Below are positions 2,125 to 4,455 of a stretch of DNA of 64,000 bases, one piece after another (positions within the stretch are counted from its first letter, which is position 1; each line of letters opens with the position of its first letter). A program made the translations under genes and the position numbers. Under the pieces are notes generated by a model. The model searched no databases. It was given only the letters and a program-made list of their open reading frames with translations, and was not told the origin of the DNA. Source of the stretch: a virus. The stretch is from positions 32,001 through 96,000 of IMG/VR virus record IMGVR_UViG_3300025276_004419, one strand, 5' to 3'.

Positions 2125-4455
2125 ATGAAATTAGTTATATATGCGGGGTATTATTCCCCACCCTACTCACCTGAAACTATAGATGAAACTGGTTTAGGAG
2201 GTACAGAACAATGTATTATAAATTTAGCTAAAACCCTTAAATCCCAAAATCCAATTTGGGATATTTGGGTCGTTGGTGGAGTGGTTTATGGAGATTACGA
2301 TGGTATAATGTATAGACCTACACAAGACTTTAAAAATGAAGTAAAATCTGTAGATACTATTATTGGGGTTTCGTACATTCATTACATTAAAGAATTTGAG
2401 GGTATCGATTATACCGACTCAATACTTTGGGTGCATAATACCGAATATTATACGTGGTGGAATGGCCAAGATATTGCCAACCATCGTGAACTTTTATTAG
2501 ATTCTAAATTAAAATCTATAATTTGCTTAACAGAATGGCATAAAAACATATTTATAGAACAATTCCCAGAAACCAAAGATAAAATTCAAGTTATAGGTAA
2601 TGGAGTAGATACTTCTAAATTCCAGATAGGAGATAAAAACCCAAATCAATACATTTATACTTCACACGCTGAACGAGGTTTAAGTCAAATACTAACAGAA
2701 TGGGATAGTATTTTATTCAAAAATCCCCTTGCGGAATTAAAAATATCTACTCCTCAATATGGTTTAGAATATTTTAATCTTTATTACAGAGATTTAGTAG
2801 ATAACTTGGATAACGTAGAATTCCTTGGTACATTACCGCAACATGAGCTATATAAACTAATGGCCCAAAGTACTTATTGGTATTATCCTTCATCATATCA
2901 GGAAACCTTTTGTATTACGGCTTTAGAAATGTTAGGTCATGGGGTTCAACCTATTACTTGGGAATGGGGAGGATTAAAGGAAACATTAAACAATTTTAAT
3001 ACCCTAAATAAGGACGAATTCCTAGATTGGGAAGAAGTAAATCAATACCTAAATCAATGTAGTTGGAAATCCAGAGTAAATAACCACTGGGTCCCATTAC
3101 TAACAAATACAAGTATGAAATTAGAAACATTTTATGTTTTAGCTCTAAATGAGACAGCCGAAATTAGAGAAAAATGCGAAAACTTACACTTACCATCCAA
3201 AACCCCTTATTGGATTAAACCTGGGTTCGATGCTCGTAAAATGGAGCAAGAAGATTGGGATAAATTTGGTGTAGATAAACACCCACGTTGGAATATTGAA
3301 GGTAGTAATCCTTGGTGGAAACGTGATGTAATGGAAGGTGAATTAGGTTGTGGCTTATCTCATGTAGATGCTTGGGTAGATTCATATCGTAGAGGATTAG
3401 AAGTAACACTAATTTTAGAAGAGGATTTTCACGAAGAAATGCCTGTAGATTGGAAACAAATTGATAAATTGTTTAAAAAAGGTTATGACCTTATTTATTT
3501 AGGACGTAATGCTTTAGAGGCAGCACTAGAAAAACCAATTAAAGATGTTAAAGGTTGGGTTGAACCCGATTACACATATAATTCTCACGCATATATCTTA
3601 TCTAAAAGGGGTGTACAAATTTTAGTAGAAGAGTATATGGAGCAATACAAGAAAGAAATGTTTGCTTTTGATGAATTTCTTACTCTTACTTTTGGTATGA
3701 CCCATCGTCAGGATATCCTTCAAGAATATGAGGGTAAAACTCGATTAAAAGCAGCAGCCCCTATTCGAGACCACTATATACAAAAAGATAGCCCAGGATC
3801 AACATTTTATATTAAACCAACCCAACCATCCTTTGGGGACTTGCTGGGAAAGCCACCCGGAGTTAGAGATAGCTCCAATTGGGAAATATGGTGTCAAAAA
3901 TATATTAACCCATTTTTACTTAAGGGTCAAAGTAGGTTAATGATAGATGAAATAGCACCTAATGTCATAGAATTCCCTTTATTTACAGAAGAATTTTGTA
4001 AAGAAGTTATAAGTTTAGCAGAAGATAAAGAATGGGTTACGGATAGACATGAGTTTTACCCTACAACAGACCAAACTATGGAAAGTTTAGGAATGCAAGA
4101 TATTTATCAAAGAGTATTAGAACAATTTGTATATCCTATATGGATACAATTTTGGGAACTTACAGGTGAACCTTGGAAAACGTTAACGAGCGAAAATTTT
4201 ATAGCTAAGTATAATACCAAAAATCAAGGTAGTTTAGACTTGCATCACGACAGCTCTGCCATTACATTAAATGTAAGATTAAATAATGAATTTAAAGGTG
4301 GGGGTACATTCCTACCAAAATACAAAACTACAGTCCAACCACGTAAAACTGGGTATGCTATGGCACACCCGGGAAATATAACTCATTTACACGGGGGTAG
4401 ACCAGTAGAAACAGGAACACGTTATATATTAGTATCATTTACAGCAAACAATTAA
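2125..4455 (+). CDS. Tri-domain protein: GT4-like glycosyltransferase + GT25 (collagen galactosyltransferase-like) + PLOD-type lysyl hydroxylase (2OG-Fe(II))
   Basis: N-terminus GLGGTEQ...YTSHAERGL...ETFCITALE (GT-B/GT4-like). Middle GELGCGLSH...LILEEDF...YDLIYLGR...AYILSKRG...DEFL (GT25/COLGALT-like). C-terminus FIAKY...LDLHHDSSAITLNVRLN..FKGGGT...HPGNITHLHGG...GTRYILVSF (H707-x-D709, H756, R766), matching the PLOD/LH catalytic domain. Confidence 0.85.
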   Translation: MKLVIYAGYYSPPYSPETIDETGLGGTEQCIINLAKTLKSQNPIWDIWVVGGVVYGDYDGIMYRPTQDFKNEVKSVDTIIGVSYIHYIKEFEGIDYTDSILWVHNTEYYTWWNGQDIANHRELLLDSKLKSIICLTEWHKNIFIEQFPETKDKIQVIGNGVDTSKFQIGDKNPNQYIYTSHAERGLSQILTEWDSILFKNPLAELKISTPQYGLEYFNLYYRDLVDNLDNVEFLGTLPQHELYKLMAQSTYWYYPSSYQETFCITALEMLGHGVQPITWEWGGLKETLNNFNTLNKDEFLDWEEVNQYLNQCSWKSRVNNHWVPLLTNTSMKLETFYVLALNETAEIREKCENLHLPSKTPYWIKPGFDARKMEQEDWDKFGVDKHPRWNIEGSNPWWKRDVMEGELGCGLSHVDAWVDSYRRGLEVTLILEEDFHEEMPVDWKQIDKLFKKGYDLIYLGRNALEAALEKPIKDVKGWVEPDYTYNSHAYILSKRGVQILVEEYMEQYKKEMFAFDEFLTLTFGMTHRQDILQEYEGKTRLKAAAPIRDHYIQKDSPGSTFYIKPTQPSFGDLLGKPPGVRDSSNWEIWCQKYINPFLLKGQSRLMIDEIAPNVIEFPLFTEEFCKEVISLAEDKEWVTDRHEFYPTTDQTMESLGMQDIYQRVLEQFVYPIWIQFWELTGEPWKTLTSENFIAKYNTKNQGSLDLHHDSSAITLNVRLNNEFKGGGTFLPKYKTTVQPRKTGYAMAHPGNITHLHGGRPVETGTRYILVSFTANN

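Follow-up and report, generated by a model that had tools for sequence, protein, structure and literature searches.

The window analysed here comprises 64,000 nucleotides (positions 32,001 to 96,000) of IMG/VR record IMGVR_UViG_3300025276_004419, a 130-kb record of a marine T4-like myophage. It opens within a collagen-like tail-fibre gene (3′ part, 2..1855, + strand; Pfam Collagen, E 1.6e-36, and tail-fibre PHROGs), the full gene (G000:C1:29731-33855, equivalent to L002:13731-17855) encoding 1374 aa. This is followed on the same strand by an 80-aa orf with no Pfam or PHROG match (1866..2108) and by the gene of main interest (2125-4455), one uninterrupted frame of 776 aa. Downstream, all on the + strand, lie genes for a small 2OG-Fe(II) oxygenase (4460..5074; 204 aa; Pfam 2OG-FeII_Oxy_3, E 1.3e-15), a DUF7796 protein with a GT-A-like fold (5074..5823; 249 aa; PHROG 13607) and a second fusion, of 770 aa, joining GT4 to a TibC-like protein O-glycosyltransferase (GT9) (5827..8139; Pfam Glycos_transf_1 and Glyco_transf_9). 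A conserved 83-aa orf (8156..8407), found at the same place in the relatives L003-L006, separates these from the tail sheath gene at the start of the tail module (8457..10196; Pfam Phage_sheath_1 and Phage_sheath_1C, PHROG 23), whose product shares 52.5% identity with its nearest counterpart, the sheath protein of Flavobacterium phage vB_FspM_immuto. This match and a homologue in Aquimarina make Flavobacteriia a plausible host group. Relatives as distant as 41% identity retain the succession collagen, fusion, small oxygenase, GT4-GT9, sheath. Scans for sigma-70 promoters, terminators and T4 late promoters (TATAAATA) gave matches at chance level and were uninformative on operon structure.

The small oxygenase, conserved beside the fusion gene in relatives, is PKHD/PiuC-like, with PKHD-type hydroxylases as its best PDB matches (E 2e-6; P4H only 5e-4). 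The DUF7796 protein is represented by 1-4 tandem paralogues in relatives (DUF7796 matches in 12/20 members), and its model (pLDDT 89.2, pTM 0.89) retrieves GT6, GT8, B3GalT5 and LH3 GT-A domains in Foldseek (E about 1e-6, TM 0.45-0.5). Residues 430-762 of the second fusion match TibC (4rap; E 4.4e-34). TibC/AAH-type protein O-heptosyltransferases resemble this neighbour, with cytoplasmic glycosylation of repetitive surface proteins before assembly, but differ from the 776-aa protein in being Ser-directed, in belonging to another fold family and in lying outside that polypeptide.

The initial annotation of this DNA had proposed that the 776-aa product unites GT4, COLGALT-like GT25 and PLOD-like hydroxylase domains, and Pfam, phmmer, Foldseek and conserved catalytic residues bear this out. 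The protein folds confidently as three domains (AlphaFold2, mean pLDDT 87.9), although a pTM of 0.49 means that their mutual arrangement is not reliable: a GT4/GT-B retaining-type glycosyltransferase domain (residues 1-327; 2125..3105), a GT25 (GT-A) domain akin to the COLGALT1/GLT25D1 catalytic domain (residues 336-560; 3130..3804) and a PLOD-type 2OG/Fe(II) DSBH lysyl hydroxylase domain (residues 585-776; 3877..4455 including the stop codon). The structural comparison suggested in the annotation recovers LH3, L230 and COLGALT1, then retaining GT4 enzymes. An internal Met (M331, nt 3115) had been read as a likely fusion seam, and this agrees with the model boundary (residues 328-335; 3106..3129) and with two-domain GT25+LH homologues (L080, L086-L088), which start at the equivalent of residue 329/330; Met occupies the seam in 27 of 38 aligned relatives. 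Only ~25 residues, partly disordered in the model (residues 566-577, 3820..3855, pLDDT below 50), separate the GT25 and hydroxylase domains, with no long LH3-like middle region. All the motifs singled out earlier are present (LHHDSSAITLNVRLNNEFKGGG, HPGNITHLHGG, GTRYILVSF, GELGCGLSH, DLIYLGR, AYILSKRG and DEFL), and the numbering H707/D709/H756/R766 is right. Throughout the three domains, residues serving as metal ligands, donor contacts or catalytic base vary little or not at all across the 38 relatives used for conservation counts (44-84% identity).

By sequence and modelled fold, the oxygenase domain is PLOD-type and of no other oxygenase type. When searched against the PDB with phmmer, residues 589-773 matched human LH3 (E 9e-26) and mimivirus L230 (E 2e-22), the next type of 2OG oxygenase being a P4H at only E 0.02, and Foldseek superposed the domain on the L230 hydroxylase (6ax6) with a target TM of 0.85, rmsd 2.1 Å and 31% identity; clustering with non-PLOD oxygenases, which the annotation had named as counting against its reading, was not seen. 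The Fe(II) triad H707/D709/H756, conserved in 38, 36 and 36 of the 38 relatives, aligns with LH3 H667/D669/H719, and Y696 and R766 of the 2OG pocket (LH3 Y656 and R729) are each kept in 36/38 (LH3 reference residues from PMC6082870). At the LH3 dimer contact, where the knob L715 inserts into an aromatic cavity formed by the other residues named here, L715 corresponds to I752, F639 to an invariant W677, F673 to I713 and Y642 to E/D682, while T672 is variable.

The GT25 domain matches COLGALT1 in phmmer (E 1.6e-14; in the PDB search, residues 335-524, E 5e-14), the match covering the C-terminal catalytic domain of COLGALT1 only, whereas the other solved GT25 protein (8xlz/8xc8) gave no match up to E 10. 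The Pfam GT25 score (23.6 bits) is marginally below the cut-off of 24, and precomputed annotation places PF01755 in most relatives. Residues with roles defined in GLT25D1 (PMC12987934) are retained: the Mn2+/UDP site EDD435-437 corresponds to E432 (38/38), D or E at position 433 (36/38) and D434 (38/38), the uracil-stacking C412 to C409 (38/38), and the catalytic base D522 and hydroxylysine amine anchor E523 to the invariant D516/E517 (38/38). The non-catalytic N-terminal GT domain by which COLGALT1 binds LH3 is absent, with the GT4/GT-B domain upstream instead. In the ESM Atlas, the middle domain retrieved only phage and giant-virus GT25 clusters, with no functional lead. The GT4 domain scores 31.8 bits against Pfam Glycos_transf_1 (cut-off 26.4), its EX7E glutamates E260 and E268 are invariant (38/38), and its Foldseek matches are MshA, PimA, glycogen synthase, a tetrahydrobiopterin alpha-glucosyltransferase and the alpha-1,2-glucosyltransferase tll1591 (target TM up to 0.69). 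We know of no part for GT4 enzymes in the animal collagen pathway, nor of any role in collagen glycosylation.

The proposed substrate is encoded immediately upstream. The fibre gene specifies 301 G-X-Y triplets in which Lys occupies position Y 38 times and X never, whereas Pro occupies X 161 times and Y twice. The same bias runs through de-duplicated collagen orfs linked to the enzyme (1921 Lys in Y, six in X; 52/54 orfs with 95% or more of their Lys in Y), compared with 203 in Y and 75 in X in a sample of enzyme-independent viral collagens (6/22 orfs at that level; Fisher p = 9e-10 at the level of orfs, which are not phylogenetically independent). Among 55 testable IMG/VR loci, i.e. those with 3 kb or more of sequence on the upstream side, 41 have a same-strand collagen orf ending within 3 kb upstream. 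A quarter of the testable loci have no adjoining collagen gene, and Lys-in-Y collagens lie elsewhere in the genome in three of five outlier genomes. Lys is thus nearly confined, in the fibre genes preceding the enzyme, to the position that the hydroxylase would target, and the phage therefore probably hydroxylates and glycosylates its own collagen-like fibres.

We favour, as the likely reading, a trifunctional enzyme that acts in the cytoplasm of infected bacteria to mature phage tail fibres. Judging from homology, residue conservation and context for the first two steps, the C-terminal PLOD-type domain (Fe(II), 2-oxoglutarate, O2) would hydroxylate X-Lys-Gly lysines of the upstream-encoded fibres, and the GT25 domain would then transfer a hexose from a UDP-sugar onto the new hydroxyl, using the E-x-D/Mn2+ site and D516 as base while E517 holds the epsilon-amine in the manner of GLT25D1 E523. 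Animals attach Gal at this step and mimivirus L230 attaches Glc; either is conceivable here, and homology does not reveal the donor, as the related domain of L230 uses UDP-Glc. In a third step, conjectured from the architecture only, the retaining GT4 domain might add a further sugar, which would parallel the alpha-glucosylation carried out in LH3 by an unrelated GT-A domain. The assembly line envisaged in the initial annotation, from Hyl through Gal-Hyl to an extended glycan, accordingly has strong context in the X-Lys-Gly fibre genes, but Gal as the first sugar is not established and the part given to GT4 is purely conjectural. The enzyme would act within a larger fibre-decoration cassette, bounded by the fibre genes on one side and the tail sheath gene on the other and including the small oxygenase, the GT-A-like DUF7796 paralogue(s) and the GT4-TibC-like protein O-glycosyltransferase. 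Fibres that lack proline in the Y position probably gain stability, protection or binding specificity from glycosylated hydroxylysines. Several observations count against this reading: the GLT25D1 acceptor-cleft residues and the LH3 gating-loop and pocket residues that are not kept (below), the testable loci with no adjoining collagen gene, and the stand-alone bacterial homologues with no collagen gene nearby.

It is also conceivable, if rather unlikely, that the hydroxylase acts on fibre Lys but one or both glycosyltransferase domains serve other acceptors, so that no glycosyl-hydroxylysine chain is built by the single polypeptide. Candidate acceptors of this kind include fibre Ser/Thr, a different protein of the virion or a glycan of the host envelope. 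The acceptor cleft gives some room for this: Y494 of GLT25D1 is kept (Y485, 36/38), but W495, whose mutation to Ala abolishes GLT25D1 activity, is lost (N486 in 33/38) and K470 corresponds to a variable residue (N/Y/W/S462). The lack of a known collagen-glycosylation role for GT4, the Ser-directed TibC-like transferase in the cassette beside Ser-rich fibres, and the occurrence of GT4+LH and GT25+LH forms without the third domain point the same way. Against it stand the invariant D516/E517, equivalent to the GLT25D1 catalytic base and the residue anchoring the hydroxylysine amine, the coupling of both activities in L230 (PMC9614988), and the GT25 domains fused or adjacent to the hydroxylase in Aquimarina and in 59 of the 150 top cluster representatives.

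Modification of the host rather than of the fibres is improbable. The gene would then be an auxiliary one altering the LPS, capsule or proteins of the host surface, perhaps as a barrier to superinfection, in keeping with the Pfam label of GT25 as an LPS biosynthesis family, with a pelagimyophage study that takes glycosyltransferases of the host-recognition region as O-antigen modifiers (PMC7029224), and with L087, where a GT25+LH form sits in a replication module beside sugar-nucleotide enzymes. However, no role in LPS synthesis is known for a PLOD-type hydroxylase, the GT25 domain is COLGALT-like and unlike the other solved GT25 protein, and the gene is tightly linked on the same strand to Lys-in-Y fibre genes and the tail module.

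A non-protein substrate for the oxygenase (a nucleic acid base, sugar or small molecule), with the resemblance to PLODs reflecting a shared fold only, is more improbable still. For many of the 2OG oxygenases carried by marine phages the target is not known (PMC2938197), and some LH3 features are missing. Every relative with the RH..PTTD frame has a gating loop (LH3 590-610) nine residues shorter, without D597 or the substrate-mimic R599 and with T651 in place of H613; H642 and D649 are kept, so that half of the second Fe site (LH3 H595, D597, D611 and H613) is gone; and C691 of the 2OG pocket corresponds to T728 in 36/38. No collagen-like orf lies within 8 kb of the stand-alone hydroxylase homologues of Thiothrix litoralis and Aquimarina sp. 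RZ0, which thus offer no independent pointer to a substrate, and the family need therefore not always act on collagen. The gap between E 9e-26 for LH3 and 0.02 for the next oxygenase type, and the similarity to L230 in sequence and fold, nevertheless argue for a lysyl hydroxylase, and the strict Lys-in-Y pattern of the linked fibre genes would otherwise be hard to explain.

Maturation of the phage's own fibres has a close parallel in mimivirus L230, a characterised fusion of a GLT25D1-like transferase and a lysyl hydroxylase that is active on mimivirus collagen and adds Glc rather than Gal (PMC9614988). Both proteins are virus-encoded, with the GLT25D1-like transferase N-terminal to the PLOD-type hydroxylase, in viruses also encoding Lys-in-Y collagen-like proteins. 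L230, however, belongs to a giant virus of amoebae and is an 895-aa protein with a long middle region, whereas the phage protein has a ~25-residue linker and an N-terminal GT4 domain and its gene directly adjoins the presumed substrate genes. Environmental fusions such as P0340 (881 aa) likewise carry a COLGALT-like domain and lysyl hydroxylase in a single polypeptide, but include LH3 in its entirety, with GT-A, accessory and hydroxylase domains (E 1e-110 against LH3), fall in the animal/giant-virus clade and have no GT4 domain. The human pair, LH3/PLOD3 and COLGALT1/GLT25D1, shares with the phage enzyme the expected chemistry, 5-hydroxylation of Y-position Lys followed by inverting glycosylation of Hyl, together with the Fe triad, the 2OG Arg and Tyr, the EDD-type Mn site and the DE base/anchor pair. 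It differs in consisting of two ER-lumen proteins that form a complex (PDB 8zgc), whereas the phage enzyme, whose N-terminus does not resemble a signal peptide, must function in the bacterial cytoplasm. The second sugar is added by the GT-A domain in LH3 and would be added by the GT-B GT4 domain in the phage, and the COLGALT1 N-terminal domain, W495, K470, C691, R599 and the full gating loop are human features not kept. The remark in the initial annotation that these are separate proteins in animals holds for LH3 and COLGALT1, but understated the prior art, given the L230 and P0340 fusions and the 8zgc complex.

The fusion is consequently not a wholly new kind of protein, L230 having already joined a GLT25D1-like transferase to a lysyl hydroxylase; what is new is its occurrence in a bacteriophage, the addition of GT4, the compactness and the operon-like coupling to presumed substrate genes. 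To our knowledge, L230 is the only characterised non-animal system, and collagen-like proteins of bacteria and phages have generally been described as lacking animal-type hydroxylation and glycosylation. No published description of a phage lysyl hydroxylase or collagen glycosyltransferase was found in the literature searched, which is not proof that there is none. The findings point to a large PLOD/COLGALT-type enzyme family in bacteriophages, tied genetically to seemingly adapted tail fibres. If fibre maturation is its role, this would give a function to glycosyltransferases and oxygenases of marine-phage host-recognition regions, usually assumed to be LPS or DNA modifiers, and would place hydroxylysine-linked glycans on phage adsorption organelles, with consequences for host range and for the stability of fibres that have no hydroxyproline. 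A compact enzyme native to the bacterial cytoplasm would also be of practical interest for modified recombinant collagen.

Domain-wise phylogeny, as the annotation had advised, was run for the hydroxylase, in a quick, midpoint-rooted IQ-TREE analysis of 130 domains that included fragments and has weak deep nodes. The phage protein falls outside a clade (support 99) in which L230-like long forms group with animal PLODs and which contains P0315 (a tapeworm PLOD), P0303 (LH3-like) and P0340. On the same tree the triple fusion does not form one clean clade but requires at least five changes, a count to be read with the fragments and weak deep nodes in mind. A prokaryotic-virus branch of this kind, if true, would enter the question of the origin of animal collagen-modifying enzymes. 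Taken further, abundant marine T4-like phages might run a complete animal-like pathway in bacteria, from Lys through Hyl and hexosyl-Hyl to dihexosyl-Hyl, by one compact cytoplasmic enzyme co-transcribed with its fibre substrates, selection having confined fibre Lys to the hydroxylatable position and the phage PLOD/COLGALT branch being an independent lineage, possibly older than the animal/giant-virus one. We offer this joint reading tentatively, and as a whole rather doubt it; if true, the full pathway would contradict the common view of prokaryotic collagens as unmodified.

Against 50,697 phage records, blastn with the gene returned nothing and tblastn only matches to single domains, all below 34% identity; the fusion is thus absent from the sequenced isolates of that collection. 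Marine metatranscriptomes from two studies include short contigs on the gene, some with at least 99% identity; these are assembled contigs in which DNA carry-over is possible. That the fusion is decaying or inactive and lacks any enzymatic role is scarcely credible, degenerate hydroxylase sites in P0115 and P0116 (D to S, H to Y, R to Q) being set against catalytic residues kept in 36-38 of the 38 relatives, full length kept in more than 110 clusters at 90% identity, relatives encoded on at least 289 viral contigs, and near-identical DNA recurring across the marine metagenomes of several studies.

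ORF 2125–4455 (+) comprises 776 codons in an unbroken frame and lies in an IMG/VR virus record of 130,026 bp (estimated completeness ~80%), of which the window covers bases 32001–96000; all large ORFs of the window are on the same strand and G+C content is ~33%. Genes for a T4-type tail sheath, tail tube and baseplate are found directly 3′ of the enzyme region. The sheath protein is closest, among isolates, to that of Flavobacterium phage vB_FspM_immuto (52.5% identity), and almost identical DNA was found again in marine metagenomes from several independent studies. These T4-type genes, the nearest sheath and the marine recurrence identify the element as a marine T4-like myophage.

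In the 776-aa protein, Pfam searches identified GT4-type families (residues 100–310), GT25 slightly below threshold (336–435; 23.6 bits, cut-off 24) and, weakly, an OGFOD2-like family. When the protein was searched against the full set of PDB sequences, residues 589–773 aligned with the hydroxylase domains of human LH3 (E 9e-26) and of mimivirus L230 (E 2e-22), the runner-up oxygenase type being prolyl 4-hydroxylase at only E 0.02, and residues 335–524 aligned with the COLGALT1 catalytic domain (E 5e-14). An AlphaFold2 model built from an alignment of 38 relatives (mean pLDDT 87.9) comprises a GT4 domain (1–327), a GT4/GT25 seam (328–335), a GT25 domain (336–560), a disordered linker (566–577) and a hydroxylase domain (586–776), the relative placement of which is not reliable because pTM is 0.49. 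The fusion seam that the initial annotation had placed at M331 (nt 3115) is confirmed: it falls within the modelled boundary, and GT25+hydroxylase two-domain homologues begin at the equivalent of residue 329/330. The proposed resemblance to LH3 and COLGALT1 was likewise borne out by Foldseek, which returned, in order, full-length LH3, L230 (target TM 0.85, rmsd 2.1 Å, 31% identity), COLGALT1 and retaining GT4-family enzymes with a GT-B fold, among them an alpha-1,2-glucosyltransferase.

Functional residues were taken from structure papers on GLT25D1 (COLGALT1; PMC12987934) and LH3 (PMC6082870) and transferred via HMMER alignments. The GLT25D1 EDD motif (435–437), C412, catalytic base D522 and hydroxylysine amine anchor E523 (PMC12987934) correspond to E432-E433-D434, C409, D516 and E517 of the phage protein, and E432, D434, C409, D516 and E517 do not vary among 38 relatives (44–84% identity). 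Y494 is retained as Y485, W495, essential to the human enzyme (PMC12987934), is replaced by N486, and K470 corresponds to a variable position in the phage family. The LH3 Fe triad and the 2OG-binding Arg and Tyr (PMC6082870) are retained (H707, D709, H756, R766 and Y696), with C691 replaced by Thr, and the gating loop (590–610) is 9 residues shorter across the whole phage family, a shortening that removes R599 together with half of the second Fe site. The EX7E glutamates of the GT4 domain (E260, E268) are invariant. With the catalytic residues of the GT4, GT25 and hydroxylase domains conserved, all three catalytic cores look functional, while the GT25 acceptor cleft and the hydroxylase regulatory loop are unlike those of the animal enzymes. 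In two triple-fusion relatives, P0115 and P0116 (46–48% identity), the hydroxylase site is degenerate (D709→S, H756→Y, R766→Q, Y696→S/N, T728→I) and the GT4 and GT25 catalytic residues are all intact; the two may belong to a lineage whose hydroxylase domain is dead.

The gene directly 5′ of the enzyme gene, extending past the 5′ end of the window, encodes a 1374-aa collagen-like tail-fibre protein with 301 G-X-Y triplets, in which Lys occurs 38 times in Y and never in X, and Pro 161 times in X and twice in Y. Another fibre gene of the same kind precedes it and, before that, four consecutive fibre genes (603–862 aa; G000:C1:17314–26442 of the whole record) encode 93–159 G-[S/T/A]-S triplets each, with zero Lys and zero Pro, in contrast to the two G-P-[I/K/Q] fibres beside the enzyme gene.

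This order (one or more collagen genes with Lys in Y, fusion, small 2OG oxygenase, in some cases unknowns, GT4-GT9 fusion, 83-aa ORF, sheath) is kept in relatives down to 41% identity, and in one relative 142 of 259 collagen triplets carry Lys in Y. In a scan of IMG/VR, relatives were identified on at least 289 viral contigs; 55 loci retain 3 kb or more of sequence upstream, and in 41 of these a same-strand collagen-like ORF ends ≤3 kb upstream. Exceptions are one clade (31–32% identity), where the gene lies between capsid/PhoH genes and neck genes, and some two-domain GT25+hydroxylase forms in replication modules. When five exception records were searched in full for the Collagen family, three proved to carry large collagen ORFs away from the enzyme gene (Lys 13–44 times in Y, not in X); the other two records are only ~40% complete. 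In another phage lineage (L087:6117–15352), the gene for a 431-aa GT25+hydroxylase protein sits in a replication module, with RecA-like and DnaB-like genes on either side; genes for GDP-mannose 4,6-dehydratase and epimerase are found upstream and one for a small 2OG oxygenase downstream, and no collagen gene was found in that record (39% complete).

As a control, viral collagen-like genes were picked by an enzyme-independent pattern, and no hydroxylase or GT25 match was found in any sampled control locus. After de-duplication of both sets, the 86 enzyme-linked ORFs have 1921 Lys in Y and 6 in X (12.1% of triplets with Lys in Y), compared with 203 and 75 (4.0%) in the 80 control ORFs. Among ORFs with at least five Lys, ≥95% of Lys are in Y in 52/54 enzyme-linked and 6/22 control ORFs (Fisher's test at ORF level, p = 9e-10, which overstates independence because the sequences are related). 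The contrast between the two sets is large.

In the best-supported reading, which we consider probable, the hydroxylase domain would hydroxylate Y-position lysines of the fibre, the GT25 domain would glycosylate the resulting hydroxylysine and the GT4 domain would extend the glycan. The first two steps are proposed from homology, conservation of the catalytic residues, the precedent of L230 and linkage to the substrate, and the third purely from domain architecture. The chief rival, in which the glycosyltransferase domains would have other acceptors, seems unlikely.

The genes around the enzyme gene suggest a wider cassette for fibre decoration. The small 2OG-Fe(II) oxygenase (4460–5074, +) is PKHD/PiuC-like, not PLOD- or collagen-P4H-like, and classical Y-position prolyl 4-hydroxylation by it is unlikely, since nearly all Pro of the fibres is in X. 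A 249-aa DUF7796 protein (5074–5823, +) has a confidently modelled GT-A-like fold (pLDDT 89) resembling GT6, GT8 and B3GalT-like structures (TM ~0.5); related phages carry one to four paralogues in tandem (e.g. L024:3673–6660, L004:12982–15244; 35–45% identity), always between the small oxygenase and GT4-TibC genes. A second fusion (770 aa; 5827–8139, +) has an N-terminal GT4 domain and matches TibC, a protein O-heptosyltransferase, over residues 430–762 (E 4.4e-34). A TibC-like O-glycosyltransferase fits Ser-rich fibres, and the four G-[S/T/A]-S fibres are candidate substrates. The orthologue of this second fusion in a relative at 41% identity (982 aa; L005:11064–14012) has an extra Methyltransf_21 domain. 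Two ORFs without a family match flank the cassette (1866–2108, +, 80 aa; 8156–8407, +, 83 aa), the latter keeping its place in relatives of as little as 41% identity.

The initial annotation had these enzymes as separate in animals; 'always separate' is too strong a statement, since a virus is already known to modify its own collagen with a GT25-like/hydroxylase fusion: in L230, a glucose-adding N-terminal domain (27.7% identity to GLT25D1) is joined to a C-terminal lysyl hydroxylase (PMC9614988). Unlike L230, the phage protein is set in a bacteriophage and the bacterial cytoplasm, has an added GT4 domain, is compact, without an LH3-like middle region, falls outside the animal/giant-virus clade (in a quick, midpoint-rooted tree) and is encoded in operon-like linkage with its presumed substrate genes; the shortened gating loop is a further difference from known enzymes. 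A literature search found no published description of a lysyl hydroxylase or collagen glycosyltransferase from a phage. In studies of marine myophages, such glycosyltransferases were given a role in modifying host O-antigen or DNA (PMC7029224; PMC12801897). Hydroxylation of collagen-like proteins by certain bacterial dioxygenases was predicted by Iyer et al., who meant different families (PMC2938197).

Searched exhaustively with HMMER, the hydroxylase domain gave 2293 cluster representatives at E ≤ 1e-3 (625 at E ≤ 1e-10). The best 150 include 23 GT4+GT25+hydroxylase, 36 GT25+hydroxylase and 2 GT4+hydroxylase forms; in the other 89 the hydroxylase domain either stands by itself or is joined to domains that the queries did not recognise. 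In a quick maximum-likelihood tree, midpoint-rooted and with weak deeper branches, a clade supported at 99 holds the sole named animal sequence (a tapeworm PLOD), the LH3-like P0303 and all long forms whose GT25 lies far towards the N-terminus, while the query, all triple fusions, short GT25+hydroxylase forms and bacterial stand-alone forms lie outside it. In Aquimarina sp. RZ0 (GCA_008370685.1; L009:4271–6337), a 460-aa GT25 gene is directly followed by a 215-aa stand-alone hydroxylase gene (59% identity to the phage domain), a split version of the same pair; no collagen-like ORF was found within 8 kb, and transposase genes lie on the flanks. Among the long forms, P0340, encoded on an environmental contig of 95 kb, is a single 881-aa polypeptide in which a COLGALT1-like catalytic domain (2–212; E 3.5e-48) is fused to a complete LH3-like body (227–880; E 1e-110); ~16 cluster representatives among the top 150 matches are of this type. 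P0340 also matches mimivirus R699.
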